Origin: Nemertoderma westbladi
Taxonomy: Eukaryota > Animalia > Xenacoelomorpha
Reading direction: 5' to 3'
DNA: 64,000 bases
NCBI GenBank assembly: GCA_032718475.1
Contig: JAUCBJ010008850.1
Span: forward strand, 1,492-65,491
This document shows, piece by piece, positions 11,773 through 60,822 of the stretch. Positions within the stretch are counted from its first letter, which is position 1, and the number at the start of each line of letters is the position of its first letter. A program made the translations under genes and the position numbers. The notes below the pieces were generated by a model, which ran no database searches, was not told the origin of the DNA, and saw nothing but the letters and a program-made list of their open reading frames with translations.

Positions 11773-12851
11773 TTATTATTATTTTAGGAAATATTAGCCA
11801 ATGACAACATGAATGGGCAATTCGGAGGGTTTATGGGAAATAGACAAATTAAAAGAGATGTGTGTATCGACAGACGACGTAAAATTATATATAAATGTGG
11901 TTCAAGGCCGAACGTATAAAGCGTAAGTTATATAAGTATAAAAACAGTACATAGTTTACCTGCAAATATCGCCCATGTGAAGAATACCATGTTTTCAGTT
12001 TTCGGTGATATTTTATTTGAATTTATGAAGCATTTTGTATTTTTTTTATTTCTCCCCATTAAGCGACTTATAACGACTATATCTATCTTATAACCTGTAC
12101 ATACAGTATGCTAATTCGTTTATTGTTTTGGTTAGATTCAGCCCTACTGTAACCTGGGTTTTAAGCGAAAACCTGGAACTGTAGGCCAATTCTTCACATG
12201 GGGGTAAACTGCAAAGTGACATATTGCGTGGTAAATACAGTAACATTATTTATCGTACAGTTAACTTAGTCTGTCGAAGACCTTCGCTATTTGGAAGCCA
12301 ACTCCAAACCAACATGGCCTGCGTGACAGTTTGACTTTTTAAGGATAATAAGTATTATAATCACTCAATGACTCTAACAATACATTAGACTTACATTACA
12401 TATGGAACTTAAACAAACGTAAAAATACTGTATATAATGTTTTATATTTTAGGTTCATTGAGGTAATCATGGATCTCGCCTGCTTGAGTAACTCCCACTA
12501 CCAAGAAAATTAGCTTTAATATAAGTTAATTGTTAATTATTAACTCTTTTAGTAAACTGGTTTTTCGCTTTATTATTAAAATATGGTTCCACGTGTAGGT
12601 CTACAATACTGTATTTGAACAACTAGCGTTATATTGTAGCTTTACGTTTCTGTAACAATGTAAGGATAAATAGCATTTTATTATGTTAAGAATATAGGTA
12701 GGCCTATATGACTTAATGTACAGGTATAGAATTATATTCCCTAAATGCCGTGGATTTTCAAAATTTTATTTTATTCGGATTAACTTTTGTAAAGATTGCT
12801 TTGAGTTCTCATTAGTATTGGTTCTATCTATTGTACATCTATCGGTCAAGT

Positions 12852-12938
12852 GGTTCAGTAGCTCAGTTGGTAGAGCGTTGGAAATTATATGTGTAGTAGG
12901 TATCGAGTTCGAATCCTAGTAAGTGCGAATTATTTTTT
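12852..12938 (+). promoter_or_regulatory. tRNA-derived Pol III type-2 promoter in U3 (copy at 27513-27599)
   Basis: A box TAGCTCAGTTGG (12859-12870) with GCTC/GAGC D-stem, B box GAGTTCGAATCC (12905-12916), T6 at 12933-12938. Confidence 0.75.
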
Positions 12939-12995
12939 GTACAGAATTTCAACTCGTTTAAATTAACCGCTACAAATTAATTGCATTTGTCTGTA

Positions 12996-13200
12996 CCAAT
13001 GAGACTGTAGTTATTTGATTGTAACCAATGTCGTGCAAGTTATATATTAGCTGGACCAATAGCTATCTTTAAAACCTTGTTAGAACCCATAGAACAATCG
13101 AGAATTTTCTCGATTGATTGCGGCACAAATTTGCTATAAAAGGGTGCGATTTGTTCATTAGTTATTATTCTATATTACTCTCTCAGTTATTCAGTTATCT
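12996..13200 (+). promoter_or_regulatory. Putative Pol II LTR promoter
   Basis: CCAAT at 12996, 13025, 13056 and CCCAT at 13086 (~30-bp spacing); palindrome 13095-13116 with GAAnnTTC; TATAAAAG at 13135; TCAGTT initiator-like motifs at ~13183-13196. Confidence 0.65.
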
Positions 13201-14645
13201 GATATTTGTTTATTCTGTGATTAGTTTTCAGATTACATCGTATTATAATTATATCTTCTGTAATAAAGTCAGAATATTCTCTCAGCTTTTCTATCTGTTT
13301 TACTATGAATTCACTACGGTGAACAAACTCAGGGACAGGATGGCCGGCTAGAGATCGGGCCGCAGCAATGAACGGGAACATCACGGGAATGTAGACGAGA
13401 GACAACCCGCAATACCATTTAGAGTTATTCGCCCATCGCCTGAAAGGTTAGACAGCGTTCGATCCTTGCTACCTAAGTGTAAGACCAAAAGATCAAAAGG
13501 TAGACGTAGTGACACGCTGTAAGCCCAAAATTACATCATAGGGACTGTACTGTCTTGATTCAGGAAAAACCCACAGTAGACCTTCACATTCCTACGGGGG
13601 GAGAGAGAGCGCAGGCAGATACTAGTACGCAGATAGGACGTAGGCACACCGGTACAAGGCATACACATTGGTTAGGGTGCAGCAAACTGTACGCTTAACT
13701 CTTGCTAAGTACAGGTGTGTGTGCGACTATTTGCAGTACGTCAGTGTCCATTGCATTAGAACTTGTAGGCTAGGGGGGTTGCTGTGTTTTCACCTGAATT
13801 GGGATTGTACCGTTCGGGCGGTAGGGCAGTTTACACTAGGCGCAAATAAATTGAGGCTATCAGGGATATACTAACATCTACCGTGTCCCCGCCAACGCCC
13901 TAATAGGAAGTTACCCGGACTACCTGGGTGACTAAAATTCTAGATAGGAGCCAGGATAGCTATTAGTACCCGTACGCCTACAGTAGTAAACTAACACATC
14001 TCTTCTTAGTATCAGGGACCTGGTACCTAAAATTGCCGAATTCTGGGCGTAGTATTAACCTTATGCCTGAATTTGAGTCCTGGAAATACGCAAGAGGGGA
14101 AGGAACCTTATCATTCGTGAGTATTGGACCTACAAGTTATAAAATTGGAATATTCGTAAATGCACACCGTACCCAGTAATTATATATGTGAAGGAGCAAA
14201 ACTGTTTTGACCGTTCAGAATTATCACACGCGCGTTAGAAATTATTTACACCTCGAAATATATAAAATTAACTTTGTCCGTACTGTGCTTTGCCCGCTAG
14301 TTAGACATCTCCAAATCTCTGCCTGTACCTAGCTAGCGTCTCTTTGCCCAACCATATAAATCACACCGCGGCAAAGTATACGAGCCCCTTAGTCCGTCAG
14401 TGAGTCAGCCTGATTTTAGGATTCGCTGCGCGGGATTTTGTTTTATCGAAGTTTGTCTGCTCGTAGACTGTTTTCTGCCTCACCGGTTATAAGAGATCGA
14501 TACTGCAATATATTCGCTTACTTAGAGTTTACTGTTTTGGTGAGAAGGTCGGATTTATGATTTGATTTACAAACTTTACAGTAGGATATTGCAGGTATTG
14601 TTACCGTCTTTTCGTATAGTAGGAATAGGCGTATCTCTTCCAATA

Positions 14646-14656
14646 GTAGGAATGTG
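14646..14656 (+). promoter_or_regulatory. Primer-binding-site position, self-complementary to LTR 13585-13595
   Basis: GTAGGAATGTG abuts the 5' LTR, lacks TGG, and is the exact reverse complement of CACATTCCTAC. Confidence 0.7.
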
Positions 14657-15454
14657 TTTTACTGAACTACGGTTCGGTAGGACTAAAGTTATTTGAAAAT
14701 TTTGTATTTTGAGGTAAAAATTTATATTTGATTAGCTAAGTGCTAATTTTTTGAAATAAAATTTGATTTGAACCGCGTGTAAAATATTTTGGAATTGAAT
14801 ACCGGTGTTTAAAAGGGTTTAAATACCATATTGTACCGGTACAAAATTTTTCGTAAAGTAAAACCTAACTCTTTTGTTTTTCAGGATTCAGAACTCATTT
14901 CTAGACTGTAACGGGAGCAAGACCGTGTTTAGCAAGTTTGGGAGATAGATAACTCAACAACTTTGGTTGGGAAAATCGCGTTTCGTCCGCAACGTTAAAA
15001 ACGGAAGGGTTCACGTCCGGTTTGTATCTGGGAATCTGTTTTTCTGGAGAATTATTGGAGTGGGTGAGTTCGAAAAGTTGCATAAATAAGTTAGGCATTA
15101 CCGTATTAGTTAAAAATTATTGTGGGTTCCACTGTCTCAAGTATTTATGCATTCCGTACGATTTCTTTGTTCATTGCTGAATTAGTCCGTATTATTGTAT
15201 TTAATTTATCTTTTGATAACGCATATCGTTATCCGATTTATTTGTTATAAAATTGGGCGCTAGGCTAATTTTATTATATACTCATTCCGTGACATTTATT
15301 TGCTGTAAAATTGGCCGTTTAGGCTAATTTTATCCATCTGCTATAAAATCGGCCGGTAGGCTAATTTTATAAGACTGTAATTAGTACCGTTTAGATATAA
15401 ATACGGTAAACTCGATACTTTGACACTCACTTTACTTGACTTACAACTACCGAA

Positions 15455-18400
15455 ATGAGTGACAAACAAGACTATACGAAGAATACACAAACCGACTATG
15501 ACTCATGCGACGGAGATAAGTCAGCAGCGGAAGAACAACAGGGGAAGACTCGCGAGCCTACCGAACCTACACCGTGTGCGTCACCAGTACATCCAACGGG
15601 AGTACCGGATGCCGTAGTACGAGGTGACGGCAGGACCGAGGACTTTCTAACTGTTCCGCAACCTAGATACAGGGAAACGGAAATGGTAAGTTCAGCAGGA
15701 AGCACAGAAAGTGTGGTTAGAAGCGTCGGAGGTTACATGGTGCATATTACCAGGAGTATTGGAGAAGGCCAACGCATATTAGACGGGTTGACCGCTCCGA
15801 TGTCTCGATTCGAGTTCTACACCCTCCAGGTTAGAGTACAGAGTAAAGTATATAAGTCCGTAGATAATCTAGTTGGCCTACAAGATCTAGCTAGACAGAG
15901 ACAGGACATGGATACTCAACTTAGAATCCTCGAGAAACTAATGATCGCTAGAGAGAAACTGATTCAGTTTAAGTCGACGATTAGACAGATACAACAGGAA
16001 CAAGCGGACCAGTTGTTAGGTGAGTCAGTTTCGGACGAATTATTACAACCCGAGGAAGAACAGGAACTGTACCGACTGGATGGACAATTAAAACACCTGA
16101 CGGACCACTTACGCATGTGCGGCGAAGACGTCGGCGATTTGGAAACCGTGCCGGAATATACGAGGGAAACTTCATTCGCACAAATCGAATCGGCACCGGG
16201 AATACTAAATCAATCGCTGGTAAGTATTCGTAGCGAAATCTGCGAGGGAAGTATGGTCACGTCAGAAGTTGCTCGACAACAGCAACAGTTCTACAGACAG
16301 CAACACGATATGGAAGAACAAGCTCAACTTCTAATGATACAAACAGCGGTAGAGGAAGAGAAAATACGTGTCGCGAATGTAGCGAGAATCTCTCATCTGC
16401 AGGAACAAGCCGAACTCGAAGCGGCCGAAATGGAAAGGTTAGAGTTGGACATTGCCCAACAAGCGGCAGCGGCCAAGTTAGCGCAACGAACGGCAACGGC
16501 CGAGTTAGAGCGACAAACGGCGGCAGCCGAGTTAGAGCGACAAACGGCGGCAGCCGAGTTAGAGCGACAAACGGCGGCAGCCGAGTTAGAGCGACAAACG
16601 GAAGTGGCGGAGTTAGAAAGAAAGCGACTAGTTTCAGAAGCCAGAGTCGAGATGAAGACACGGCAAATAAAAGCCCAACAAGCGATACGACAAGCAGAGT
16701 TCGAGGCGCAACAACAACAAACGGAACAACGAGAAAAGGAAGTTAAACTCCGTTTCGAACTTGAGAAAAGGGCGAGAGAATTAGCCGAAACCAAGGAAAA
16801 TCTGGATCTTCTAGCTCGTGATCGATCGATGAGATCTCGTGACGGACATGATCTAGACCAGTTAGAGGTAAGGCACCGCCAAATCCAGGAACGAATGAAG
16901 GAAGGTTCGGTAGGGGCACCTGGACGAGAAAGACAATTAGTTAAGGACTTATGTCAAAGATTCCCTCAGGTAACTCCTATGTTTGCACCTGTTACGACTA
17001 AGGAACCTGTTTCGATTGCTGGTAGCAGTGATATCTCTCCTATCCATGGTGTGACGGAACACAGGTTTGTTATTCCGGACAAGTTTATACCTTCAAGAGC
17101 AACGTCGTCGCCTATTTTGAGGGTCAAGGTAAGTAACCCACCGATTACAGATCGTAGTAGTTTATTGACCGGACCTGCACTACTGACGACAAAACAGGTG
17201 AGTCCACCTTTGACACCTAAACCCGTTACGCACTACGAATACCCAATGACGTTTCGACCTACAAGGCCAGTTGATTCAAATGCTGTCATTCGTCCACCGG
17301 TTCAGTTTGCATCGCAATCTACGACTTCAAGGAAGACTTGTGAGCCTACCGAACAACGGAGACCAGTGGATACGCGACCGCTCAACCAGTTCACATCGCA
17401 ATCTACGACTTCGAGGAAGACTTGTGAGCCTACCGAACAACGGAGACCAGTGGATACGCGACCGCTCAACCAGTTCACATCGCAATCTACGACTTCGAGG
17501 AAGACTTGTGAGCCTACCGAACAACGGAGATCAGTGGACGATGTTCCGAAACGAAATGTTAAAATTCGTACGACGCAACGGACGCGAGCACGTCGACCAC
17601 CATATCCGGATGATAGTAGTACTTCGAGCGAATCGGATTACCCGAAACGCGAGGTATTTAGAACAGGGGCGGCCGATGAATATAAACGCGAGCGTTCAGA
17701 CAACTCCTTTGCAGACAATCCTCCACAGAATACACCAACACCGAAGGCGTTACAACCAACGGACGCAATTAGTACACAACAGTTCGCCGACATTCTGCGA
17801 CCAGTTGTCAATAAGTTGGCTCAGATCGAGGAACGTCTGGAGGAAGGTTACACCGACAGTTCGAGAAATTCCGAATTCGAACACAATAGACACCCGAAGG
17901 CACCACAAAGACCGGTACCTTCAAACCCCACATCGTATCAGGGAAAAGCGCCAAGAAGGGAGAACATCAACCAGACTACCAACCAAGGACGCGAAACTCT
18001 GAACGTTGCCGAGGAGATAGCGAAATTCGCAGCCAGACAGGGATTGCCGGTACAACAACCACCGAAGTTTTCCGGTAGCTCAAAACACTGGCATACCTTC
18101 GTAGACTATATCGAATCCCAGATCGCCGTGTGCGCCTTTACATCACGGGAGAAGTTCAATTACCTGCTCCAAACGTTGTCAGGAGAACCTAAACGTTTGG
18201 CGGAGACTTTCGTCGGTGTACCGGACGCTTTCGAACTAGCGTACGATCGTTTAACTTCGATATACGGAGGTACAGTGAGTATGGCCAGGTCAGTAATAGA
18301 GGAACTCTGTAAGGGAGGGGCTATCACTAAACCCGTCGACTTACTAAAACTAGCTGACGAGATCAAGAACGCTATCACTACCTTAAGATCAATTGGACAA

Positions 18401-21400
18401 CTTGATTACGGGAATACCCCTACAGTTCTATTAAAGATAATAGGACGACTCCACCATCGACTTCGTCGGGAGTGGAGGAAGGTCGAATACCAGCGAGAGG
18501 AGCGAGGAGGATTCCTAAAATTAGAAGATGTGTACCTTTTAATATCCAGGGAGGCGGTAGTAGAAACTCGATCTAACTATACCGACCAGCACATCGTGGC
18601 AGAAGGGATCACACTGCCATCCTCCAACCGACAAAAACCCCAGACAACATCCACAAAGACGGCCACTTACGCCACACCGACGGAATCACGACAATTCTCA
18701 GACGGTAATAGAGTATCTGCGCCCATTGGGACAAAACAGACGAGACAGCAACTCAGCACCGACTTCAACGGCTGCCAATACTGCGAGCATCTAGGTAAGC
18801 GGTATATTGGTCACAAGTTACGAGGTTGTCGACAATTTCGCGAGTTGAACTCGGAAGAACGACGGCTGCAGATACGGCCACTGGACTCTTGTTGGCGGTG
18901 TACGCGACACGGACACGTGCGTAAGGATTGCCCAAATACTGACACTTGTCCATCCTGTGGACGCAACCACGACGGTCTGCTCCACACAGACAGCCACACG
19001 CCGACGAAACGCTTCGCCAGGGAACACCCGGAAGCAGCAGCGAGATGTGATGCGGCCTACCGAAAACGAGAATCGAAAACGACTCCAACCTTTGTGACCC
19101 ATATTGAGGATTGCTTCTCAGAACAATCCGGATCGTCGGACGAAGAATCAGAAGACGACGATGAATATTCCAATGGAGACGAACAACCGTCGATCGCGCT
19201 CCTGACTACTGATCAACTGAAGGGATTCAGTGTAATCCCGATTAAGGTTACTGGCACAAAGGGAAGTAAGAGGATCTATGCGATTCTAGATTCAGCCTCA
19301 TCCCATAGCTACGTGGACGAAAAGATAGCTGACGTCGTAACGGATCTCAGACAAGGTAAACACGTCAGTTATACAGTAAGTAGTATGCACGGCCAGCGTG
19401 CAATACCAGTGACACGAGTTAAGTTGGACTTAGACTCTCTTCTTCCAAAATCGCAACACAGCGAGAGGGAGAGGTCTTTGTTACCCTTTAGAGATCTAAC
19501 CTTTGCGGCCACGAAGGACTTTAGTAACCTACTAGGTCCAGTGCCGGAACAATCTCTGGAGGACCGTAAGTATTTCAGACACCTTGGTGTACCCGAATGT
19601 CCTGTCAATTATAGATCGGTAGCAATGCTGATCGGGACGGACCAATTCAACCTACATCAGGTGTGGGAAACCAGACCATCGGCAGTTGTAGCGGGAAACG
19701 CATACGCCTGCAGAACGCCGATAGGGTGGTATACTCGAGCGCCTGTGCGCACACTAGACGTAAGTGACGAGGAAGACGATGTACAGAGTACATGTAGTTT
19801 ATTAACTACAAATTCTATTCATTCCTTTTCACACGACGTGAACCATACTACGCTACAGTCGACAAAACATGACAGACGGGTAACTAGTATGATAAGTCAC
19901 AAGGAGCAGCTAATCCACAAGGTGAGTTTGGAACTTGGGGAGAAGATGAGTCAGCTAGAGATTCCATCGACGACAGATGATAGGCTTGCGAGTCTACCTA
20001 CCCCAATAACCTCAACAGTGCCCGTCGATATCGATGATGACGCGTTGAAAATTCATCAGTTGGAACAAGCGGACCTGGACAAAGAATTAACGGAGAAGAC
20101 TATCAGGTGGTTTGAACAAGATACAGCTGAACCTGGTAGCTACGAACCTTGTATGTCGGAACAGGAGAAACAATCTCTAAAGATCATGGAAGATACTATC
20201 CGACAGACGGAGGACGGACATTACGAGGTGGGGATGTTATGGCGTAGCCAAAGTCCAAAACTTATAAATAACTACCCACTGGCTTTGAGACGTCTACACT
20301 CAATACGACAACGTCTATTAAAGGACGAGAAAGCCCATCTGCAGTACAACACTCAGATGGAGACGTATTTGACTGAAGGATACGCTATCCGAATGACTAA
20401 CCCGGAGCGAGTGACCGACCAGACGTACTACTTGCCACATCACTACGTGAGACACCCCGATAAACCAGACAAAGTACGTGTAGTCAATGACTGTGCGGCT
20501 CTGTTTGAGGGAATGTCCCTCAATAGTGAGTTGATGGATGGACCGAACATGAATAATTATCTAATGGGGGTGATTATGCGCTTCCGTCAGCGTCAAGTAG
20601 CCTTTACTTGCGACGTTGAAGCGATGTTTCACCAAGTAAAGGCTTTAGAGCGAGACAAAGACAGTTTGCGGTTCCTCTGGTATCCGGAAGGAGACTTAAG
20701 TCTACCACCAGCGACTTACCAAATGCAAGTTCGCGTTTTCGGTGCCAGAGACAGCCCAAATTGTACGATGTACGCCTTGAAGCAAGCCGCTAGAGATCAG
20801 AAACATCTGTATGACCCAGAGATAATTAGAATTGTGGAGCGTGACTTTTATGTAGATGACGGTTTACAAAGTTGCGACACAGTAGAACGTGCTACAACAG
20901 TAGCACATCAATTACGGGACTGCTTGGCGGGCGGAGGTTTTAACCTCACCAAATTCGCCTCAAACAGTGCCGAATTAGTTGACTCATTCGGAACTACTGA
21001 GCGTGGAGGTGGTGACATAGACCTAGAGTTCGAACCACTACCGACGACTAAGGTGTTGGGGCTCTTTTGGGACCCAAACACAGACAACTTTCGAGTGAAG
21101 GTGAGACTGGACAGTCAAGGAAACACACTGACCAAGAGATCATGCTTGTCAAAGTTGAGCCGATTGTTCGATCCGTTAGGATTCATCAGTCCAGTGATAC
21201 TGCAAGCCCGCATTTACATGCGCAGTATATGGAAGGATGGACTAACGTGGGACGAGCCGATCTCATCAGACCAAGTGGACTTATGGAAGACCTGGGAGGC
21301 GGAATTATCTTCGCTAGAGGATTATTTCATACCCAGGGTTTACTTTCCATTACAAAGTACATTTCCTGACAACTTGGAACTACACTGTTTTTCTGACGCC

Positions 21401-24253
21401 AGTGACAACGGTTTTGGTGTGGCAGCGTACTTGCGCAGACAAGTAGAATCAGACGAGTTCGATGTTTCGCTCATTACTTCCAAGGCTAAGACCATGCCTA
21501 CTAAGTATATGACGACACCACGAGCCGAGCTACAAGCCGCGACCCTGTCAACCACCATCGTGAACCTCATACAGACAGAACTACAGTCGAGTTTACAGAT
21601 ATTTTATTGGACTGAGGCGACGTTGGTTTTATTTTACATAAACAACGACACACTCGAATTCAAGACATTCGTAGCTAACCGTCGCGCAGAGATTCTAGAC
21701 CGTTCGATAAAAGAGGATTGGCGACATTGTCCAGGACCACAAAACCCAGCTGATATTGCGTCGCGAGGAATGATGCCTGAGGAATTCTGTAAACCGGAGA
21801 ACAAAGGGTTTTGGCAACACGGACCCCAGTTCTTGCAGAAATCGACACAAGATTGGCCTCCGTTATACGACAACAAGTCCAACACCATTCCAAAGGACGC
21901 CGAAATCAAGAAACCAAAAAAGGGGAAGACAAAGAAAAGGACAACGGCGGCAAAACTCAAGAAAAAACCGAAGGCAAAATGGAAGGATATAACTTCAAAG
22001 GTCAAGAGAGGAAGACTTGCGAGCCTTTCTACACCAGACATATCGCCAGACGGTCAACCAGACATGTTACTAGACAGCCAACCAGACATTTTGCCAGACA
22101 TATCACAAAATGTTCCACCAGACGCTAGTAACACACTGACAAACAGTAAAGCCGCAGTTTCCCTATTGGAGCGGCCTTCTATTGACAAACAACCAGATAC
22201 GTTACCAGACGTATCGCCAGACACATTACTAGACAGTCGACTAGACATTTTGTCAGAAACATCACAAAATGTTCTACCGGACATTAGTAATGTATCGACT
22301 AACAATAAAGCCGCAGTTTCCCTATTGGAGCGGCCTTGTATTGACAAACTACCAATTTTGACACACTTGAGCAACCATAAGCACGGTGAAACCTCATGTA
22401 TTACAGATGTGGGTAGTACCTACGCTAATGTAAATACAGGTGTTACTTTGCGCTCAAGAGACATACCGAACTTGCAACCTACGGTGAGACCTGGGATTAA
22501 TGTCGGCAGGAAAATAAGTTTACCGAAACCTGCTGACCCCATAGAGTTCAAACCACCATTAACGATCGACTTACAAAGTACCGACAATCAAGGTAAGAAG
22601 ACAAAGAAGGACAAATTACTTGTAGACCCCGACGGATCAACAGTCAACAAGGGAATACTTACCGGCGGACCCGTGGGCCCTTCTAGTAATTTAAAACCTT
22701 CCAAAATCTCCATTGACTTACCTGATGACGTCACAAATACTCATGTCGACCGTATTGTAAACTTAACAGATTCTTGGTCAAACGCTTGCCGAAAATTAGC
22801 GTGGATTGTACGTTTTGTACAATACGTTAAAGGCAAACGTGACTTTACACGTCGACTTACATTGGCTGAGATTGACAGGTGTGAGATTAAATTAATTCGC
22901 CATTATCAAATGCGATATTTCGCGCGCGAATTCACATCTATAAATCAAGGTCAACCAATCAAGTCGTCACCGATACTGAGTTGGAGTCCGATAATTTATA
23001 ATGGCTTAATTTGTCATAAATCTCGGCTTCAAAACATTGACTTTAATACGAATTTTAGATACCCAATAATAATACCGCAACACCACGAACTACAACGTGC
23101 AATGATACTGGACGCACATTTACATCTGAAACACGCTGGAAGACACCACTGTCTTTCCTACTTACGTACTAGATTTGTATTAATTAGACCCAGTAAAGCG
23201 TTAAGTTCAGTGACACGTACGTGTATTATTTGTAAAAAGGTACATTCTAGAATAGGTACCCAAGAAATGAGTGAACTACCACAAGCACGACTTCAAGCAT
23301 TCAAACCACCTTTTACAGAGACTGGAATTGATTGCTTTGGTCCCATACATACGAAACGTGGACGTATACTAGTAAAACGCTGGGGACTGATTTTCACATG
23401 TATGTCCAGTAGGGCAGTTCATATTGAACGTGTGATGGATCTTTCCACTAACGCGTTTATACTAGCACTGCGGCGATTTATCGCTAGACGCGGACTAGTG
23501 AAATGCTTGTACTCAGACCAAGGGACAAACTTTGTTGGTGCTCGGAATGAGATTGCTAGAGCCTTTAAGAAATTAGATCATGATCAAATCTCAAACGAAC
23601 TGCAACCTCACAAGATTGTTTGGAAGTTCAATCCTCCAGATAGTCCTTGGAGAGGCGGAGTCTGGGAGAGACTGATTAGATCTATAAAGACAGCAATGGC
23701 AAAGGTCATTCCAGTAAACCACATATTAACAGACGACCAACTGACAACATTGTTTGTTGAAATCGAGGCAATACTAAATACTAGACCAATAGTATTAGTA
23801 CCCGATGACAAACAATCTCAGTTTGCTTTGACACCGGCACACCTGCTAATGCAGGCACCGACGACTTTGACACCGATTTCTATTCCAATAGAAAGCGACA
23901 GCTACGGTAGAAAAGCGTGGAAAATCACGCAACTACTGGCTAACAAATTCTGGGAAATATGGCAAAACCATTATTTGCCCTCTATTTCTGCCAGAACAAC
24001 ATGGTACAATAACACCCGCGCATTAAAGCCGGGAGATCACGTGCTGTTGGCAGAAGTGAATCTAAAAAGACGCTTCTGGATAACAGGTGTAATTTTAGCC
24101 ACACATCCATCTATGGATGGAGTGACAAGAACTGTGACGGTACGAACAATTGACGGTCGTACAGTAGACAGACCGACTCAACGTCTCGTACTTCTTGAAG
24201 AAACTCGTAACGAGTCTGGAGACTACAAATCTCCACCTAATACTAGTAAATAA
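15455..24253 (+). CDS. BEL/Pao gag-pol polyprotein (2932 aa)
   Basis: Coiled-coil N-terminus; DUF1759-like PPKFSG..EKFNYL; Cys/His fingers (CWRCTRHGHVRKDC, CPSCGRNH..LLH); protease LDSAS; RT YYLPHH/FYVDD; RNase H FSDAS..PRAEL..NPAD; integrase HHCC, IDCFGP, SDQGTNF, GGVWERL. Confidence 0.97.
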   Translation: MSDKQDYTKNTQTDYDSCDGDKSAAEEQQGKTREPTEPTPCASPVHPTGVPDAVVRGDGRTEDFLTVPQPRYRETEMVSSAGSTESVVRSVGGYMVHITRSIGEGQRILDGLTAPMSRFEFYTLQVRVQSKVYKSVDNLVGLQDLARQRQDMDTQLRILEKLMIAREKLIQFKSTIRQIQQEQADQLLGESVSDELLQPEEEQELYRLDGQLKHLTDHLRMCGEDVGDLETVPEYTRETSFAQIESAPGILNQSLVSIRSEICEGSMVTSEVARQQQQFYRQQHDMEEQAQLLMIQTAVEEEKIRVANVARISHLQEQAELEAAEMERLELDIAQQAAAAKLAQRTATAELERQTAAAELERQTAAAELERQTAAAELERQTEVAELERKRLVSEARVEMKTRQIKAQQAIRQAEFEAQQQQTEQREKEVKLRFELEKRARELAETKENLDLLARDRSMRSRDGHDLDQLEVRHRQIQERMKEGSVGAPGRERQLVKDLCQRFPQVTPMFAPVTTKEPVSIAGSSDISPIHGVTEHRFVIPDKFIPSRATSSPILRVKVSNPPITDRSSLLTGPALLTTKQVSPPLTPKPVTHYEYPMTFRPTRPVDSNAVIRPPVQFASQSTTSRKTCEPTEQRRPVDTRPLNQFTSQSTTSRKTCEPTEQRRPVDTRPLNQFTSQSTTSRKTCEPTEQRRSVDDVPKRNVKIRTTQRTRARRPPYPDDSSTSSESDYPKREVFRTGAADEYKRERSDNSFADNPPQNTPTPKALQPTDAISTQQFADILRPVVNKLAQIEERLEEGYTDSSRNSEFEHNRHPKAPQRPVPSNPTSYQGKAPRRENINQTTNQGRETLNVAEEIAKFAARQGLPVQQPPKFSGSSKHWHTFVDYIESQIAVCAFTSREKFNYLLQTLSGEPKRLAETFVGVPDAFELAYDRLTSIYGGTVSMARSVIEELCKGGAITKPVDLLKLADEIKNAITTLRSIGQLDYGNTPTVLLKIIGRLHHRLRREWRKVEYQREERGGFLKLEDVYLLISREAVVETRSNYTDQHIVAEGITLPSSNRQKPQTTSTKTATYATPTESRQFSDGNRVSAPIGTKQTRQQLSTDFNGCQYCEHLGKRYIGHKLRGCRQFRELNSEERRLQIRPLDSCWRCTRHGHVRKDCPNTDTCPSCGRNHDGLLHTDSHTPTKRFAREHPEAAARCDAAYRKRESKTTPTFVTHIEDCFSEQSGSSDEESEDDDEYSNGDEQPSIALLTTDQLKGFSVIPIKVTGTKGSKRIYAILDSASSHSYVDEKIADVVTDLRQGKHVSYTVSSMHGQRAIPVTRVKLDLDSLLPKSQHSERERSLLPFRDLTFAATKDFSNLLGPVPEQSLEDRKYFRHLGVPECPVNYRSVAMLIGTDQFNLHQVWETRPSAVVAGNAYACRTPIGWYTRAPVRTLDVSDEEDDVQSTCSLLTTNSIHSFSHDVNHTTLQSTKHDRRVTSMISHKEQLIHKVSLELGEKMSQLEIPSTTDDRLASLPTPITSTVPVDIDDDALKIHQLEQADLDKELTEKTIRWFEQDTAEPGSYEPCMSEQEKQSLKIMEDTIRQTEDGHYEVGMLWRSQSPKLINNYPLALRRLHSIRQRLLKDEKAHLQYNTQMETYLTEGYAIRMTNPERVTDQTYYLPHHYVRHPDKPDKVRVVNDCAALFEGMSLNSELMDGPNMNNYLMGVIMRFRQRQVAFTCDVEAMFHQVKALERDKDSLRFLWYPEGDLSLPPATYQMQVRVFGARDSPNCTMYALKQAARDQKHLYDPEIIRIVERDFYVDDGLQSCDTVERATTVAHQLRDCLAGGGFNLTKFASNSAELVDSFGTTERGGGDIDLEFEPLPTTKVLGLFWDPNTDNFRVKVRLDSQGNTLTKRSCLSKLSRLFDPLGFISPVILQARIYMRSIWKDGLTWDEPISSDQVDLWKTWEAELSSLEDYFIPRVYFPLQSTFPDNLELHCFSDASDNGFGVAAYLRRQVESDEFDVSLITSKAKTMPTKYMTTPRAELQAATLSTTIVNLIQTELQSSLQIFYWTEATLVLFYINNDTLEFKTFVANRRAEILDRSIKEDWRHCPGPQNPADIASRGMMPEEFCKPENKGFWQHGPQFLQKSTQDWPPLYDNKSNTIPKDAEIKKPKKGKTKKRTTAAKLKKKPKAKWKDITSKVKRGRLASLSTPDISPDGQPDMLLDSQPDILPDISQNVPPDASNTLTNSKAAVSLLERPSIDKQPDTLPDVSPDTLLDSRLDILSETSQNVLPDISNVSTNNKAAVSLLERPCIDKLPILTHLSNHKHGETSCITDVGSTYANVNTGVTLRSRDIPNLQPTVRPGINVGRKISLPKPADPIEFKPPLTIDLQSTDNQGKKTKKDKLLVDPDGSTVNKGILTGGPVGPSSNLKPSKISIDLPDDVTNTHVDRIVNLTDSWSNACRKLAWIVRFVQYVKGKRDFTRRLTLAEIDRCEIKLIRHYQMRYFAREFTSINQGQPIKSSPILSWSPIIYNGLICHKSRLQNIDFNTNFRYPIIIPQHHELQRAMILDAHLHLKHAGRHHCLSYLRTRFVLIRPSKALSSVTRTCIICKKVHSRIGTQEMSELPQARLQAFKPPFTETGIDCFGPIHTKRGRILVKRWGLIFTCMSSRAVHIERVMDLSTNAFILALRRFIARRGLVKCLYSDQGTNFVGARNEIARAFKKLDHDQISNELQPHKIVWKFNPPDSPWRGGVWERLIRSIKTAMAKVIPVNHILTDDQLTTLFVEIEAILNTRPIVLVPDDKQSQFALTPAHLLMQAPTTLTPISIPIESDSYGRKAWKITQLLANKFWEIWQNHYLPSISARTTWYNNTRALKPGDHVLLAEVNLKRRFWITGVILATHPSMDGVTRTVTVRTIDGRTVDRPTQRLVLLEETRNESGDYKSPPNTSK
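17303..17540 (+). repeat. 84-bp (28-aa) in-frame tandem repeat x~3 in gag; a 27-bp AAAELERQT repeat lies at ~16490-16620
   Basis: GGAAGAC recurs at 17331, 17415 and 17499. Confidence 0.9.
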
Positions 24254-24914
24254 TTAGGAGTTTGTTTACAAATAGATTTCCACGTACCTGTACACCGTAG
24301 TAAGGACAGCGGTAGAATTCCATTGTCTTTATATGTGAACATTGAGGGTAGTACCCTTATGTGTCACATAGGAGCGGGATTTGTAGGTATAAGAAATGGA
24401 ATTCTACTTGGAACTCACAATATTGAGACATTTTCGAAATTTTAGACAATCCATTTGGATTTGAAAAATTTTAAAATTTTCTCCAGTGAATAGATTTCAG
24501 GGTACAGTCGGGTGGAACTTAAAATTAGAGAAACAAGAGAGGAAGACTTGCGAGCCTTTCTTAAAATTTTAATTAAATTTTACACGGTCTTGTTTCAATA
24601 AGTTACGTCAAATAGACTCCCCTATATTTATTACTAATTCTTGATTGCTTATTTTCTGATAATAGTTTGGGATCAAAAGGTGAGTATTTTAGACTCACGG
24701 CCAGTTTAGCCCAAATTCGTTTTTACTTCGGCAAAAATTTTAGATAAGAAGCAGCGTGTCATTAAAGAAACCTTAGATCTTAGGCTATGGGTAGGAGGTT
24801 AGAGCGTTGTCGAAGCCCAAAAGGCAGACGAAACTCTCACGTCTCCTCACAACTAACCACAAACTCTGTTGTATTCCCTCTAGTAGTAATGATTATGTAA
24901 CTACACCTCTAATT

Positions 24915-25250
24915 ATGGAGAAAGGGATACAAGGAGAGCCGAGATGGGGATATGATATCCAAGAGGAGGCAGCAGCGCCATTCAAAAGATTTGGAGCCAA
25001 GGACTACACTATATTTGGTATAAAGGAATTATCAGAAAGTACAGCGAAGCTCGCAAAGACAGCAATGCCTTTACTCGAGCAGGATTTAGCATATTTCGAG
25101 ACGTGTATCTTCGCTGTGCGGGATCTCTTATCGAAAGACCATCTATGTTTACATTGTTACCCTATGAAGGAGAACGTATCGTGGAGATTACGGATGAATC
25201 ACGGCAGACGCGCGCGCCTATCGGTCACCTTGGTGATGAATTCGAAGTAA
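24915..25250 (+). CDS. Accessory ORF2a of BEL element (probable N-terminal, zero-frame part of ORF2)
   Basis: attATGG start in good context after a splice acceptor at 24883; overlaps the -1 frame ORF by ~295 nt. Confidence 0.55.
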   Translation: MEKGIQGEPRWGYDIQEEAAAPFKRFGAKDYTIFGIKELSESTAKLAKTAMPLLEQDLAYFETCIFAVRDLLSKDHLCLHCYPMKENVSWRLRMNHGRRARLSVTLVMNSK

Positions 25251-26617
25251 CTACTACGATCACCGACGATCCTTTAGAGGAACTTCTTGAGATAGAAAGG
25301 AACCTCCCGAAGAAATCTCAGACGGAGATTCGACAACTTGAAGCAACGGATGCTATAGTTTGTATACAACCTTCAGAAACCTACCAACCCATAGACCCAG
25401 ATGATTACGATTATAGTATGGGAGGAAGCGCTCGACCGATTGGAGATCTTATATACGAACGAGTGTGGTACCCTGCCAATACGATGTGTAGTAAATGTGG
25501 CGTCGCTGGACATCATATGGCAAAGTGCAGTGGAAAGCACATTACTACGACTCAGCTAATCTGTGGATGGTGTGGGGATCAAGGGTCTCATACCTTTTAT
25601 ACTTGCTGGAGATTTATGGCTCAATGTACTTACTGCAATATAAAGGGACATCGAGCATCTGAATGCCAACTGAGAGACATACCTTATGAACACGAATCTG
25701 TTAAACTCGTGAGGAAATTATTTGATGAGTGGGAAGATTTGGCCGACGAACATGTATCGGCACAGAGAAGACGGTTTCCGATGAGAGCGCATCTCGGATT
25801 TTGGGCGGTAAATCCCCAGACGATGATGTCGGAAGGATATATCTCCGCTATGCCCCAATATGACGAACTTATCGAGGTTGTCGATATTTTACCCCACGAC
25901 AGCGGATTCCGAGTGGTGCGCGAGTATCTGTTACAAATTCACCCGGATAACAAAAACACGTGGAATTTTCAGAAAGTCGTTAATCGGATTACGTATGGTG
26001 AATTCGATCGTTTCCGAACTGAAAAGCGGAACAAGGGAGCTTGGTTAACCGTCGCATGGGCGTACCGAGCCGCGTTTTACCACAAACGTATACGAGCGAG
26101 CGTATTCGAGGAAGAAGAGGTCCTAGAGGCGACGAATATACCAGCCACTCCGGTTGCGCCGTCTGCACGTCACCCTCGGGAGGACGGACAGGGTAGGATC
26201 ATACGGGTCCAGAAGGTGGGCCAACATTTGAAGAAAATTATTAATGTAGAAGAACGCAAGGGAGTTGAGCCGACCATTCGAGTTACTCGGGATACGGTAT
26301 CACTTCCAAGAGAACCAGTAGGAGGATCGGGACATACACCAGCTGATCAACAGGGGGCGCAAGCTACTCTTGGGTCTGCGTCGTCCGCTTCTCACGCGTT
26401 CCCAGACGTTCTACCAACTGTAGTGACAACTGATCGGTCACGAGGAATCGGTCGAGGTTTTGGGATGCCAAATAGACGAATTTGCGAGGAAATAGTCGCA
26501 CCGTCTCTCAACGTCCCAAGTAAACCAGTGACTCGCCCCACAAGTCCCATATCGCGAGCAAAGTCACCTGTGCGCAGTTTTCGAGGACGCGGCAGGGCTC
26601 GATCTACTAAGCGATAA
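24956..26617 (+). CDS. Accessory ORF2b: triple zinc-knuckle protein with basic RS/RG-rich tail
   Basis: Frame open 24956-26617 (track ORF 25103-26617); CSKCGVAGHHMAKC, CGWCGDQGSHTFYTC, CTYCNIKGHRASEC; tail SPISRAKSPVRSFRGRGRARSTKR; no signal peptide or TM segment seen, so not env. Confidence 0.85.
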   Translation, partial: YPRGGSSAIQKIWSQGLHYIWYKGIIRKYSEARKDSNAFTRAGFSIFRDVYLRCAGSLIERPSMFTLLPYEGERIVEITDESRQTRAPIGHLGDEFEVTTTITDDPLEELLEIERNLPKKSQTEIRQLEATDAIVCIQPSETYQPIDPDDYDYSMGGSARPIGDLIYERVWYPANTMCSKCGVAGHHMAKCSGKHITTTQLICGWCGDQGSHTFYTCWRFMAQCTYCNIKGHRASECQLRDIPYEHESVKLVRKLFDEWEDLADEHVSAQRRRFPMRAHLGFWAVNPQTMMSEGYISAMPQYDELIEVVDILPHDSGFRVVREYLLQIHPDNKNTWNFQKVVNRITYGEFDRFRTEKRNKGAWLTVAWAYRAAFYHKRIRASVFEEEEVLEATNIPATPVAPSARHPREDGQGRIIRVQKVGQHLKKIINVEERKGVEPTIRVTRDTVSLPREPVGGSGHTPADQQGAQATLGSASSASHAFPDVLPTVVTTDRSRGIGRGFGMPNRRICEEIVAPSLNVPSKPVTRPTSPISRAKSPVRSFRGRGRARSTKR

Positions 26618-27385
26618 AAGGGAGGGCAAGGGTGGACGGAAGACTCGTGGGCCTTTCTTATGATTTGTGATTTATTTTGAATTATATGTTTTATATTTAG
26701 AAAATTTAGTAAAACTTATATTTTATATTTGTGCTTATTCCGAACTTATGCAATTTGTATTGTTCCGAATTTATGAAATTTAGAAATAAGAATTTATATT
26801 TTGTAAAACTTATATTTAGTAAAACTTATATTTTATATTTGTGATTATTCCGAACTTATGCAATTTATATTGTTCCGAATATTATGCAATTTATATTTTA
26901 TAAGCAGTATTTGTATTTACAGTGAAATAGAAAGTTTTATAGATAGAAAAATTTGTGCTCAGAAAGACTCATATTTGTAATTATTCCAAACTTATGCAAT
27001 CTACATTTAGGTACGAAAGTATTTGTAATTACTTGAATTTATGCAAATATTTGAGATGCAATAGTAGATGGAAGACTCGCGAGCCTTTCTTATTGTTTTA
27101 ATTTGTTTGTGTTTGTAATTGTTTAAATTTATGCAATATTGAGATGCAATAGATTTATATTGGTGAATTTAATTTAGATTTATATTGTACTTACTTAGTA
27201 AAGCCTTAAATACGTAAAGTTTGAATTTGTAATTATTTTTGTATCGAATCATTACGTAGAAAGGAAGTATTGTATGAAATTTAATTGTAAATATGTAAGT
27301 ACGCCCTAAGTATTCTATAGTTTAATTGATTATTGGTGAAAACCGTATATTTTATGCACGATAATATCCTGTTTTCATGGAGCGG

Positions 27386-29306
27386 TATAGAATTATATTC
27401 CCTAAATGCCGTGGATTTTCAAAATTTTATTTTATTCGGATTAACTTTTGTAAAGATTGCTTTGAGTTCTCATTAGTATTGGTTCTATCTATTGTACATC
27501 TATCGGTCAAGTGGTTCAGTAGCTCAGTTGGTAGAGCGTTGGAAATTATATGTGTAGTAGGTATCGAGTTCGAATCCTAGTAAGTGCGAATTATTTTTTG
27601 TACAGAATTTCAACTCGTTTAAATTAACCGCTACAAATTAATTGCATTTGTCTGTACCAATGAGACTGTAGTTATTTGATTGTAACCAATGTCGTGCAAG
27701 TTATATATTAGCTGGACCAATAGCTATCTTTAAAACCTTGTTAGAACCCATAGAACAATCGAGAATTTTCTCGATTGATTGCGGCACAAATTTGCTATAA
27801 AAGGGTGCGATTTGTTCATTAGTTATTATTCTATATTACTCTCTCAGTTATTCAGTTATCTGATATTTGTTTATTCTGTGATTAGTTTTCAGATTACATC
27901 GTATTATAATTATATCTTCTGTAATAAAGTCAGAATATTCTCTCAGCTTTTCTATCTGTTTTACTATGAATTCACTACGGTGAACAAACTCAGGGACAGG
28001 ATGGCCGGCTAGAGATCGGGCCGCAGCAATGAACGGGAACATCACGGGAATGTAGACGAGAGACAACCCGCAATACCATTTAGAGTTATTCGCCCATCGC
28101 CTGAAAGGTTAGACAGCGTTCGATCCTTGCTACCTAAGTGTAAGACCAAAAGATCAAAAGGTAGACGTAGTGACACGCTGTAAGCCCAAAATTACATCAT
28201 AGGGACTGTACTGTCTTGATTCAGGAAAAACCCACAGTAGACCTTCACATTCCTACGGGGGGAGAGAGAGCGCAGGCAGATACTAGTACGCAGATAGGAC
28301 GTAGGCACACCGGTACAAGGCATACACATTGGTTAGGGTGCAGCAAACTGTACGCTTAACTCTTGCTAAGTACAGGTGTGTGTGCGACTATTTGCAGTAC
28401 GTCAGTGTCCATTGCATTAGAACTTGTAGGCTAGGGGGGTTGCTGTGTTTTCACCTGAATTGGGATTGTACCGTTCGGGCGGTAGGGCAGTTTACACTAG
28501 GCGCAAATAAATTGAGGCTATCAGGGATATACTAACATCTACCGTGTCCCCGCCAACGCCCTAATAGGAAGTTACCCGGACTACCTGGGTGACTAAAATT
28601 CTAGATAGGAGCCAGGATAGCTATTAGTACCCGTACGCCTACAGTAGTAAACTAACACATCTCTTCTTAGTATCAGGGACCTGGTACCTAAAATTGCCGA
28701 ATTCTGGGCGTAGTATTAACCTTATGCCTGAATTTGAGTCCTGGAAATACGCAAGAGGGGAAGGAACCTTATCATTCGTGAGTATTGGACCTACAAGTTA
28801 TAAAATTGGAATATTCGTAAATGCACACCGTACCCAGTAATTATATATGTGAAGGAGCAAAACTGTTTTGACCGTTCAGAATTAACACACGCGCGTTAGA
28901 AATTATTTACACCTCGAAATATATAAAATTAACTTTGTCCGTACTGTGCTTTGCCCGCTAGTTAGACATCTCCAAATCTCTGCCTGTACCTAGCTAGCGT
29001 CTCTTTGCCCAACCATATAAATCACACCGCGGCAAAGTATACGAGCCCCTTAGTCCGTCAGTGAGTCAGCCTGATTTTAGGATTCGCTGCGCGGGATTTT
29101 GTTTTATCGAAGTTTGTCTGCTCGTAGACTGTTTTCTGCCTCACCGGTTATAAGAGATCGATACTGCAATATATTCGCTTACTTAGAGTTTACTGTTTTG
29201 GTGAGAAGGTCGGATTTATGATTTGATTTACAAACTTTACAGTAGGATATTGCAGGTATTGTTACCGTCTTTTCGTATAGTAGGAATAGGCGTATCTCTT
29301 CCAATA
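27386..29306 (+). repeat. 3' LTR of BEL element
   Basis: Direct repeat of 12725-14645, followed by TSD ACAGG. Confidence 0.97.
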
Positions 29307-29847
29307 ACAGGTGTTGTACTTTATTTAAGTTGGTGTAATATCATTACACGATTATTTTCTCCTGAATATCAGTTAACAATTTTTACCAAAAACAACCCGG
29401 TGATGACTAGCTTGACATGTGCACATATCGCCCCGACTCTAGAACTCTAGCTTCCTACTGTATGTTTAACGCAGACTCCGGATAAGGAATGTTGATTACA
29501 AAGTTATCAGGCCTGTCATTAATTATTTAGGAGGTCATCTCATAAGCCTGAATATCTTATAAACAAAAAAAAATATAATAATCTCAAATTGCCGCAATGT
29601 GAAGGTAATCCAATATTTTCACGATTTTCCAAATTGGTTCAACGCATTACAGAACGCTGTTTCCAAAATTACTGATTACAGGTACTTTTTAAATTAGTTT
29701 TACTATTATAAAGATTACTTTAATGGGGAGTTGGTGCACAAAGGTAAATTACGATAAACAAAGTATCTTACAGTATAAAACCTCCTTCGGTTTCTAATGA
29801 ATACAGAAACTTCCTCTGTTGAGACGAGTTATAAAGTCAACACATTA

Positions 29848-38448: not shown

Positions 38449-41400
38449 CCTGTTCACCACCATGGGTGATCTTCCACAGTAAACCCTTCCACTCTGTTTC
38501 CTAAAGGAATGCCTGTTCACCACCATGGGTGATCTTCCACTTAAACCCTTCCATTATGTTTCCTAAAGGAATGTCTGTTCACCAAAATGGGTGATCTTCC
38601 ACAGTAAACCCTTCCACTCTGTTTCCTAAGGAATGCCTGTTCACCAAAATGGGTGATCTTCCACAGTAAACCCTTCCACTCTGTTTCCTAAAGGAATGCC
38701 TGTTCACCACCATGGCTGATATTCCACTTAAACCCTTCCATTATGTTTCCTAAAGGAATGTCTGTTCACCAAAATGGGTGATCTTCCACACTAAACCCTT
38801 CCACTCTGTTTCCTAAGGAATGCCTGTTCACCAAAATGGGTGATCTTCCACAGTAAACCCTTCCACTCTGTTTCCTAGAGGAATGTCTGTTCACCAAAAT
38901 GGGTGATCTTCCACAGTAAACCCTTCCACTCTGTTTCCTAAAGGAATGTCTGTTCACCAAAATGGGTGATCTTCCACAGTAAACCCTTCCACTCTGTTTC
39001 CTAAGGAATGCCTGTTCACCAAAATGGGTGATCTTCCACAGTAAACCCTTCCATTATGTTTACTAAAGGAATGCCTGTTCACCAAAATGGGTGATCTTCC
39101 ACAGTAAATCCTTCCACTCTGTTTCCTAAAGGAATGCCTGTTCACCACCATGGCTGATCTTCCACAGTAAATCCTTCCACTCTGTTTCCTAAAGGAATGC
39201 CTGTCCACCACCATGGCTGATCTTCCACAGTAAATCCTTCCACTCTGTTTCCTAAAGGAATGCCTGTCCACCACCATGGTCGATCTTCCACAGTAAATCC
39301 TTCCACTCTGTTTCCTAAAGGAATGCCTGTTCACCACCATGGCTGATCTTCCACAGTAAACCCTTCCACTCTGTTTCCGAAAGTAATGCCTGTTCACCAC
39401 AATGGGTGATCTTCCACAGTAAACCCTTCCACTCTGTTTCCTAAAGGAATGCCTGTTCACCACCATGGGTGATCTTCCACAGTAAACCCTTCCATTCTGT
39501 TTCCTAAAGGAATGCCTGTTCACCACCGTGGGTGATCTTCCACAGTAAACCCTTCCACTCTGTTTCCTAAATGAATGCCTGTTCACCACCATGGGTGATC
39601 TTCCACAGTAAACCCTTCCACTCTGTTTCCGAAAGTAATGCCTGTTCACCACAATGGGTGATCTTCCACAGTAAACCCTTCCACTCTGTTTCCTAAAGGA
39701 ATGCCTGTTCACCACCATGGGTGATCTTCCACAGTAAACCCTTCCACTCTGTTTCCGAAAGTAATGCCTGTTCACCACAATGGGTGATCTTCCACAGTAA
39801 ACCCTTCCACTCTGTTTCCTAAAGGAATGCCTGTTCACCACCATGGCTGATCTTCCACAGTAAATCCTTCCACTCTGTTTCCTAAAGGAATGCCTGTCCA
39901 CCACCATGGCTGATCTTCCACAGTAAATCCTTCCACTCTGTTTCCTAAAGGAATGCCTGTCCACCACCATGGTCGATTTTCCACAGTAAATCCTTCCACT
40001 CTGTTTCCTAAAGGAATGCCTGTTCACCACCATGGCTGATCTTCCACAGTAAACCCTTCCACTCTGTTTCCGAAAGTAATGCCTGTTCACCACAATGGGT
40101 GATCTTCCACAGTAAACCCTTCCACTCTGTTTCCTAAAGGAATGCCTGTTCACCACCATGGGTGATCTTCCACAGTAAACCCTTCCATTCTGTTTCCTAA
40201 AGGAATGCCTGTTCACCACCGTGGGTGATCTTCCACAGTAAACCCTTCCACTCTGTTTCCTAAAGGAATGCCTGTTCACCACCATGGGTGATCTTCCACA
40301 GTAAACCCTTCCACTCTGTTTCCGAAAGTAAAGCCTGTTCACCACAATGGGTGATCTTCCACAGTAAACCCTTCCACTCTCTTTCCTAAAGGAATGCCTG
40401 TTCACCACCATGGGTGATCTTCCACAGTAAACCCTTCCACTCTGTTTCCGAAAGTAATGCCTGTTCACCACAATGGGTGATCTTCCACAGTAAACCCTTC
40501 CACTCTGTTTCCTAAAGGAATGCCTGTTCACCACCATGGGTGATCTTCCACAGTAAACCCTTCCATTCTGTTTCCTAAAGGAATGCCTGTTCACCACCGT
40601 GGGTGATCTTCCACAGTAAACCCTTCCACTCTGTTTCCTAAAGGAATGCCTGTTCACCACCATGGGTGATCTTCCACAGTAAACCCTTCCACTCTGTTTC
40701 CTAAATGAATGCCTGTTCACCACCGTGGGTGATCTTCCACAGTAAACCCTTCCACTCTGTTTCCTAAAGGAATGCCTGTTCACCACCGTGGGTGATCTTC
40801 CACAGTAAACCCTTCCACTCTGTTTCCTAAAGGAATGCCTGTTCACCACCGTGGGTGATCTTCCGCAGTAAATTCTTCCACTCTGCTTCCCAAAGGAATG
40901 CCTGTTCACCAAAATGGGTGATCTTCCGCAGTAAATTCTTCCACTCTGCTTCCCAAAGGAATGCCTGTTCACCAAAATGGGTGATCTTCCGCAGTAAATT
41001 CTTCCACTCTGCTTCCCAAAGGAATGCCTGTTCACCAAAATGGGTGATCTTCCGCAGTAAACTCTTCCACTCTGTTTCCTAAAAGAATGCCTGTTCACCA
41101 AAAAGGGTGATCTTCCGCAGTAAATTCTTCCACTCTGCTTCCTAAAGGAATGCCTATTCACCACCATGGGTGATCTTCCATAGTAAACCCTTCCACTCTG
41201 CTTCCCAAAGGAATGCCTGTTCACCAAAATGGGTGATCTTCCGCAGTAAACTCTTCCACTCTTTGTTTCCTAAAAGAATGCCTGTTCACCAAAAAGGGTG
41301 ATCTTCCGCAGTAAATTCTTCCACTCTGCTTCCTAAAGGAATGCCTATTCACCACCATGGGTGATCTTCCATAGTAAACCCTTCCACTCTGTTTCCTAAA

Positions 41401-60751: not shown

Positions 60752-60822
60752 GTCTTAACTCACAAGAGTCTTAACCTCTAAGACCTGCCGAACTGTGACT
60801 GCTAGCCACCGACAGAGTAAAG

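Follow-up and report, generated by a model that had tools for sequence, protein, structure and literature searches.

A two-frame accessory cassette with a predicted zinc-knuckle protein in the env position of a BEL/Pao retrotransposon of Nemertoderma westbladi

We analysed a stretch of 64,000 nt from Nemertoderma westbladi (assembly GCA_032718475.1, contig JAUCBJ010008850.1, positions 1,492 to 65,491, forward strand; hereafter the window, in whose coordinates all positions are given). The window carries a long terminal repeat (LTR) retrotransposon of 16,582 nt (about 16.6 kb, 12725-29306). Between the stop codon of its gag-pol gene at 24253 and its 3' LTR, which begins at 27386, lies the sense-strand gene that an earlier note on this DNA had recognized there. 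We found that this region is a cassette of two overlapping open reading frames (ORFs), A and B, and that it very probably provides a selected, non-env accessory function encoded by the element itself. The coordinates of the features are collected in Table 1.

Two reading frames under constraint

The earlier note had drawn a single ORF of more than 500 codons from ATG 24915. A frame of that length exists, since the frame that carries the zinc knuckles is open for 553 codons. ATG 24915, however, opens the other frame, and the span 24915-26617 comprises 1,703 nt, which is not a multiple of three. The two-frame layout and an env-style splice had been missed, so that no simple translation yields the protein as it was drawn. 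The same layout in contigs from other copies led us to reject an assembly error as the source of the frame break, and the layout, as read from these contigs, is common to the whole family.

Contigs from five public runs (four studies; one may be the source sample) were aligned to the element, runs X1, X2, X4 and X5 in a first set and X1-X4 in a second set covering 24860-25660. The second set gave 40 variant rows, of which 6 upstream of 24915 were dropped and 34 were classified. For B, the rows downstream of 25250 were pooled from the 40 listed of 143 in the first set and from the second set. Both frames are open over 24956-25007, and the 10 variants of this interval were synonymous eight times in A and once in B; just upstream, at 24915-24955, 1 of 3 was synonymous in A. 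Over 25195-25250, five of seven variants fell at third positions of B and one created a stop in A, with just two of the seven synonymous in either frame. The variant-free interval 25008-25194 was not used, since the alignment of diverged forms breaks off there, and 25521-25660 shows a comparable gap. Downstream of 25250, 21 of 28 variants were synonymous in B, against 23% expected for all changes and 32% for transitions (binomial p = 4e-6, a value that overstates certainty because the variants are not independent). All eight variants listed in the domain that follows the knuckles were synonymous, as were three of six in the tail. These patterns indicate that A is the constrained frame upstream and B the constrained frame downstream, with the switch between about 25010 and 25230 and the B frame constrained from about 25195-25230 onward. 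They also point to purifying selection on B, and the comparison among copies that the earlier note had proposed as a check gives a rough pN/pS of 0.10-0.16 for this protein.

Length variation is consistent with this picture. None of the 12 indels listed (of 27) in the first set lies inside 24915-26617, and the sole indel listed for 24860-25660 in the second set is at 24908, upstream of ATG 24915. Two diverged contigs cover 25402-25689 with 62 differences and no gap (78% identity), and another covers 25345-25660 with 52 differences and no gap (84% identity).

The earlier note had itself raised the possibility of a captured gag or long interspersed nuclear element (LINE) ORF1 fragment, decaying neutrally and absent from sister elements, in which two frames would be open by chance. 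The spacing of the knuckles is like that of Gag arrays in other retroelements, so that Gag-derived knuckles are plausible, and at first sight the frame break resembles a mutation. The synonymous bias in each frame where it is expected nevertheless argues strongly against decay, as do the gapless knuckle region in relatives of 78-84% identity, the intact coding span and the dedicated splice acceptor described below. Moreover, B has no similarity to the Gag-Pol of its own element (best E 0.28). We regard neutral decay of a captured fragment as hardly credible.

Run X5, which is labelled as a different organism, has pieces that are about 96-99% alike across the cassette (24000-27500) and that may come from a related species, shared sample content or mislabelling. 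Intervals that X5 contigs leave uncovered were excluded from the interpretation.

A spliced message and the route into frame B

The alignment of one contig from run X4 starts at 24883, and the 29 letters that precede the aligned part of this contig match 15034-15062. In this contig the leader donor at 15064 is joined exactly to the acceptor at 24883, at canonical GT/AG sites, and the joint removes a 9.8-kb intron that holds all of gag-pol. Among the public runs listed as containing the sequence, none was of RNA. Run X4 is guessed to be DNA, and the contig is either a spliced RNA or a DNA copy of one; either origin implies that the splice occurs. It is likely that A and B are expressed from an env-style spliced subgenomic RNA.

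On the spliced message, a three-codon upstream frame is followed by ATG 24915 as the first strong start, and A should therefore be readily made. ORF B needs another route, because six other ATGs stand between the acceptor and its own ATG 25145, whose context is weak. In the interval between 25145 and the nearest ATG before it, the AG sites with the highest pyrimidine content are those at 25080/25083. An acceptor at this site would make 25145 the first ATG if it were used from the leader donor, and would be in frame with B if it were used from a donor inside A (crude scoring, 18 pairs). A second acceptor near 25080/25083 is our first, if tentative, choice. A -1 frameshift seems unlikely, some other route more unlikely, and a small intron unlikelier still. 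A minor form, seen in one X2 contig, has 25058-25175 replaced by 19 other letters and is a net 99 nt shorter; it keeps the frame offset and, if functional, favours a switch near 25176-25230.

Other joints and splice motifs were noted. An X4 contig joins at 25113, a non-AG position, across 255 unrelated letters. A near-consensus donor, AAG/GTGAGT, lies at 24679, between pol and the acceptor of ORF A. Further donor motifs lie near 14540, 14594 and 14713, and a strong acceptor precedes 14885; splicing from the donors inside the LTR would strip the primer site from the message. The depth of X4 contigs rises about 30-fold from the end of pol to the 3' LTR, whereas X1 and X2 are roughly level. A climb of this kind would be compatible with poly(A) RNA, but depth of contigs is no proof of that, and it was not used as evidence.

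Domain organization and relatives of protein B

The three parts that the earlier note had read in the protein, namely zinc knuckles, an unrecognized aromatic region and a basic tail, were all recovered in the frame that ends at TAA 26617. An acidic stretch of 110 residues (24 D/E) is followed by the three knuckles, a conserved domain of 155 residues, a proline-rich linker and the basic tail. The knuckles read CX2CX4HX4C at 25487, CX2CX5HX4C at 25562 and CX2CX4HX4C at 25625. At least one knuckle motif arose in only 3 of 20,000 shuffles of the B protein, and the Pfam zf-CCHC match was weak and below cut-off (E 0.0039; 17.7 bits vs 20.8). The aromatic region (residues 176-330; 5 W, 9 F and 7 Y) has no Pfam match. 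The last 60 residues contain 16 K/R vs 2 D/E, with 5 RS/SR and 7 RG/GR dipeptides. Together, the knuckles and the basic tail predict that B binds RNA. The best 19-residue hydropathy is 0.78 in B and 0.94 in A; neither protein has a transmembrane segment, and B has no N-glycosylation sequon. With no membrane segment, B is not Env, and the description of the gene as non-env holds for both ORFs.

Searches with B covered near-length and shorter proteins, a 50%-cluster library, PDB sequences, metagenome and viral contigs, Pfam and NCBIfam. No match was found among 7,994 near-length candidates, among 18 shorter proteins (residues 95-330), among the metagenome and viral contigs or in NCBIfam, and the best E value against PDB sequences was 0.76. 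The 50%-cluster library returned two proteins (P0001 and P0002), both generic Gag-like knuckle arrays, and matches of B to Gag-like proteins were confined to or centred on the knuckles. Beyond the knuckle pattern, no homology to Air1/2, CNBP or HEXBP was detected in the protein-library and PDB searches. In the Atlas comparison, DUF8363 scored 0.88 with residues 95-330 and AIR2-like knuckle clusters scored 0.77-0.78; all neighbours were below 0.9, and these two are taken as leads only. The post-knuckle residues 176-328 had no neighbour there. Single-sequence folds reached pLDDT values of 35 and 43 and were unusable; Foldseek gave no match at E <= 0.001, and its list was disregarded. For A, no family or homologue was found in Pfam, NCBIfam, viral contigs or 122 collected proteins. 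A sub-threshold NCBIfam match of A to VOC was rejected, and RydC, the sole Rfam result, was set aside as a chance match. An exact look-up found none of five sequences. These blanks say little on relatives in other animals, because the libraries lacked even the gag-pol sequence of the element itself. The matches suggest that the knuckles came from some Gag, an origin that leaves the remainder of B unexplained.

That the sole sequence matches are Gag-like knuckle arrays would fit a free-standing, nucleocapsid-like chaperone, acting in the cytoplasm or the particle in dimerization, packaging, transport or the annealing of a self-primer duplex. The apparent fold-back priming across about 1 kb of the long LTR (see below) could need such a protein. 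However, Gag retains its own Cys-His boxes, and B is therefore no substitute for a missing nucleocapsid. With a spliced message of its own, B would also be uncoupled from the stoichiometry of Gag, and the constraint lies mostly outside what a chaperone needs. We consider this role unlikely.

Possible function of the cassette

The reading that we favour, though with less than even confidence, is that B is an RNA-binding regulator that licenses export of the unspliced genomic RNA, by analogy with CERV of the Caenorhabditis elegans element Cer1 or with Rev, which lets unspliced human immunodeficiency virus (HIV) RNA leave the nucleus. Among the three roles suggested in the earlier note (RNA chaperone, export factor and silencing suppressor), that of export factor appears to agree best with the splice architecture. 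A near-consensus donor and one or more strong acceptors have to stay unspliced in the genomic RNA, which would therefore face the export problem that CERV solves for Cer1 (PMC10309623). In the scheme that we envisage, splicing from leader donor 15064 to acceptor 24883, the joint observed in one contig, would remove gag-pol. The spliced message would be exported normally and would yield A, as well as B by a route such as the second acceptor near 25080/25083. The basic tail would then bring B into the nucleus, where the knuckles would bind element RNA, and the intron-containing genomic RNA bound by B would escape splicing or retention and go on to Gag-Pol synthesis and packaging.

Several observations weigh against an export role. 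No homologue, family or fold from the searches above ties B to an export factor, and many retroelements export their unspliced RNA through an RNA structure, with no protein (PMC10309623, section 15). The splice was seen in a single contig, from one of the five runs. No joint from A to B is among those listed for either contig set, the second of which has 29 further loose ends beyond the listing, and the A/B overlap has neither a canonical slippery heptamer nor an unusual RNA structure (z +0.85). The form that is 99 nt shorter has neither ATG 25145 nor the acceptor at 25080/25083. In addition, low-depth joints bypass the whole cassette (24800 to 26579 and 24563 to 27112), and these may be relatives that live without it.

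The separate spliced expression, the knuckles and the orphan domain would also fit an accessory gene in an arms race, in which B would bind element RNA or the small-RNA machinery and shield the element from silencing by PIWI-interacting or small interfering RNAs (piRNA/siRNA) or from RNA surveillance. The AIR2-like clusters among the weak Atlas neighbours point the same way, as does the apparent abundance of the family in its host (hundreds to thousands of contigs per run). Such a protein would be expected to change fast, whereas the orphan domain is the most constrained part of B, and no suppressor homologue was found in the library and Atlas searches. We regard counter-defence as improbable, to about the same degree as the chaperone role.

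Comparison with known accessory genes

For an export function, the closest parallel is CERV, a protein of 517 residues that is translated from a spliced message and on which export of the genomic RNA depends; it has H, M (ring-forming, with a Cys loop) and G domains, and a Cys-rich finger needed for unspliced RNA export (PMC10309623). Both B and CERV are large non-env proteins, a spliced message is found in each case, and neither Cer1 nor the present element has a stop between gag and pol. The finger of CERV, which is compared here by description only, is a candidate C4 finger, and the CERV and gag reading frames have a common 5' end. In B, by contrast, there are three CCHC knuckles, and its frame is situated entirely 3' of pol, where it overlaps another ORF.

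Within the BEL/Pao superfamily, roo has an env gene. Tas, Cer7 and Atlas virus also carry an extra gene 3' of integrase, and overlapping ORFs are reported for C. elegans belpaoviruses (PMC554778; bioRxiv 10.1101/2021.11.23.469668). In Tas, Cer7 and Atlas virus, however, the extra gene specifies a membrane fusion glycoprotein, a class to which the features of A and B given above do not conform. Non-env genes in the env position are known from other lineages: bdelloid ORF3s encode a GDSL esterase or a DEDDy exonuclease (PMC5408684), and plant elements have 3' extra ORFs (PMC7264820, PMC6317226). These ORFs are typically expressed from spliced messages, are heterogeneous and are often orphans, but the available portions of the three papers describe no triple-knuckle extra ORF or two-frame cassette.

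The tas and bel-2 genes of foamy viruses overlap and are spliced together into Bet. Like A and B, they form a pair of accessory ORFs shortly before the 3' LTR (PMC7828637), a likeness that would suit transcriptional regulation of the long LTR by A, B or both, as a Tas- or Tat-like transactivator or a repressor. The acidic N-terminus of B, its basic tail and the 1.9-kb LTR are in keeping with this role. However, CCHC knuckles as a rule bind single-stranded nucleic acid, no DNA-binding family was matched in Pfam or NCBIfam, and we rate transcriptional regulation below counter-defence. Foamy viruses, moreover, are vertebrate retroviruses with env and an internal promoter, whereas splicing between A and B is only a candidate event here, and no homology was shown.

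If B is an export regulator, it would join a small class. Export of intron-containing genomic RNA by LTR retrotransposons is known for very few elements, CERV is the only dedicated invertebrate retrotransposon export protein found in our literature search, and the BEL/Pao extra 3' genes described in the available portions of that literature are envelopes. A selected, spliced, non-env knuckle protein, in an element that is young and has an intact gag-pol, is a candidate for a second, independent regulator of this kind, and it adds a new conserved domain of about 150 residues whose structure could be solved. Neither a zinc-knuckle extra ORF nor self-priming was found described for BEL/Pao in that search, which included PMC11952523, PMC6238403 and PMC2774666 but covered neither most subscription papers nor Repbase; similar elements could be listed in supplements of the BEL/Pao surveys.

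Table 1. Features of the element and its accessory cassette (window coordinates).
Feature	Position	Strand	Details
Target-site duplication, left copy, 5 bp	12720..12724		identical to 29307-29311
5' LTR, 1,921 nt	12725..14645	+	TA...TA ends; single mismatch vs 3' LTR, at 14224
Candidate self-primer in LTR	13585..13595	+	exact complement of 11 nt directly 3' of 5' LTR
Primer-binding position	14646..14656	+	no TGG start; complementary to 13585-13595
AUG-free leader exon	14885..15063	+	predicted pyrimidine-rich acceptor before 14885; donor G/GTGAGT at 15063/15064
gag-pol, one ORF, 2,932 aa	15455..24253	+	DUF1759, Cys-His boxes, protease, RT (YVDD), RNase H (DAS), integrase, DUF5641
Splice acceptor, pyrimidine tract, CTAG/	24860..24883	+	subgenomic message
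ORF A, 111 aa	24915..25250	+	strong start context (A at -3, G at +4); variants fit frame over 24915-25007
ORF B frame, 553 codons stop-to-stop	24956..26617	+	first ATG 25145, 490 aa; stop TAA 26617
Three CCHC knuckles	25487..25666	+	B aa 115-128, 140-154, 161-174
Aromatic-rich orphan domain	25670..26134	+	B aa 176-330 (155 aa)
Basic RS/RG-rich tail	26435..26614	+	B aa 431-490
3' non-coding region, AT-rich, short internal repeats	26618..27385	+	short purine run 27379-27385 abuts 3' LTR
3' LTR, 1,921 nt	27386..29306	+	TA...TA ends
Target-site duplication, right copy, 5 bp	29307..29311		identical to left copy

Structure and classification of the element

The single mismatch between the LTRs and the perfect flanking duplication point to a recent insertion. 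In gag-pol, Peptidase_A17, DUF1759 and DUF5641 each scored above the curated Pfam cut-off, and the motifs follow in the order LDSA (residue 1278), YVDD (1799), SDAS (1980), integrase zinc finger (2557) and D/D/E (2624-2735). This domain set, with its order of protease, reverse transcriptase (RT), RNase H and integrase, identifies the element by sequence as BEL/Pao (Belpaoviridae). A triple Cys-His box ending in CX2-4CX3HX4H is described for BEL/Pao Gag (PMC554778). The second and third motifs of the present Gag fit this pattern, and the first has a C-to-H gap of 9 residues vs 3-4. Among the 120 relatives listed, the RT-RNase H region is only 36-43% identical; the hosts named there are sea urchins, a hemichordate, a tunicate, molluscs, fish, a fluke, a barnacle and a coral. 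The element is large, yet its size lies inside the limits reported for the Sinbad superfamily (up to 21,008 nt, with LTRs of up to 2,110; PMC3118150, supplement 9). The single BEL/Pao locus from metagenomes (L001) lacks a long ORF over the 744 nt available 3' of pol; with an integrase only 37% identical, it is too distant to count as a sister element. The gag-pol ORF also holds short in-frame repeats and low-complexity inserts (about 16550-16650, 17330-17520 and 21900-22700), and the low-complexity stretches include a long linker that separates RNase H from integrase.

LTR ends and a candidate self-primer

LTR retrotransposons usually end in TG...CA and have a primer site complementary to a tRNA. 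Here the termini are TA...TA (12725, 14645, 27386 and 29306), with their position fixed by the perfect 5-bp duplication, and no TGG occurs within 5 nt of the 5' LTR, a check of this start only, with no tRNA library compared. The 11 nt that directly follow the 5' LTR have an exact complement 860 nt into that LTR. A match of this length was reached at none of 2,000 random internal positions (mean 5.3). A published screening rule for self-primers requires a stretch of at least 10 nt within the 5' LTR to be complementary to sequence that begins 0-5 nt downstream of this LTR (PMC6317226), and the element, with 11 nt at offset 0, falls within this rule. The element thus shows apparent Tf1-like self-priming.

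The primer of Tf1 is the 5' end of the transcript, freed by cleavage. In the present LTR, a TATA motif at 13135 would place the transcription start about 420 nt upstream of the 13585-13595 match. The lineages listed as self-priming are Tf1/Sushi, Tcn1 and TAR (PMC6317226). They share with the present element an LTR complement of at least 10 nt to the bases after the 5' LTR and the lack of a tRNA-type primer site, but belong to Ty3/gypsy or Ty1/copia rather than BEL/Pao. If true, the self-primer and the TA ends would extend two unusual replication features to BEL/Pao. A broader proposal, that this BEL/Pao lineage independently evolved the regulation of complex retroviruses, with a two-ORF cassette in the env position to which alternative splicing or frameshifting gives access, a new Rev-like knuckle switch for export of genomic RNA, self-priming and TA-end integration, is in our judgement speculative and unlikely.

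A shorter echo of the self-primer motif occurs at about 14620. Each LTR also contains a tRNA-like stretch (12850-12925 and 27511-27586) with well-formed RNA polymerase III (Pol III) A and B boxes, a stretch that neither ARAGORN nor Rfam called.

Other features of the window

Outside the element, ARAGORN called a tRNA-Asn at 8689-8760. Long tandem arrays, from 31845 to about 37000 (13/26-nt period) and at 38954-42901, yield repetitive open frames. An open frame of 1,255 codons on the reverse strand (46928-50695) has no Pfam match. On the forward strand, a cluster of GC-rich open frames at 60799-63573, also with no Pfam match, is possibly the start of another retroelement, and an open frame at 52798-53463 with a PHD-finger match (E 1.4e-5) possibly belongs to another transposon.
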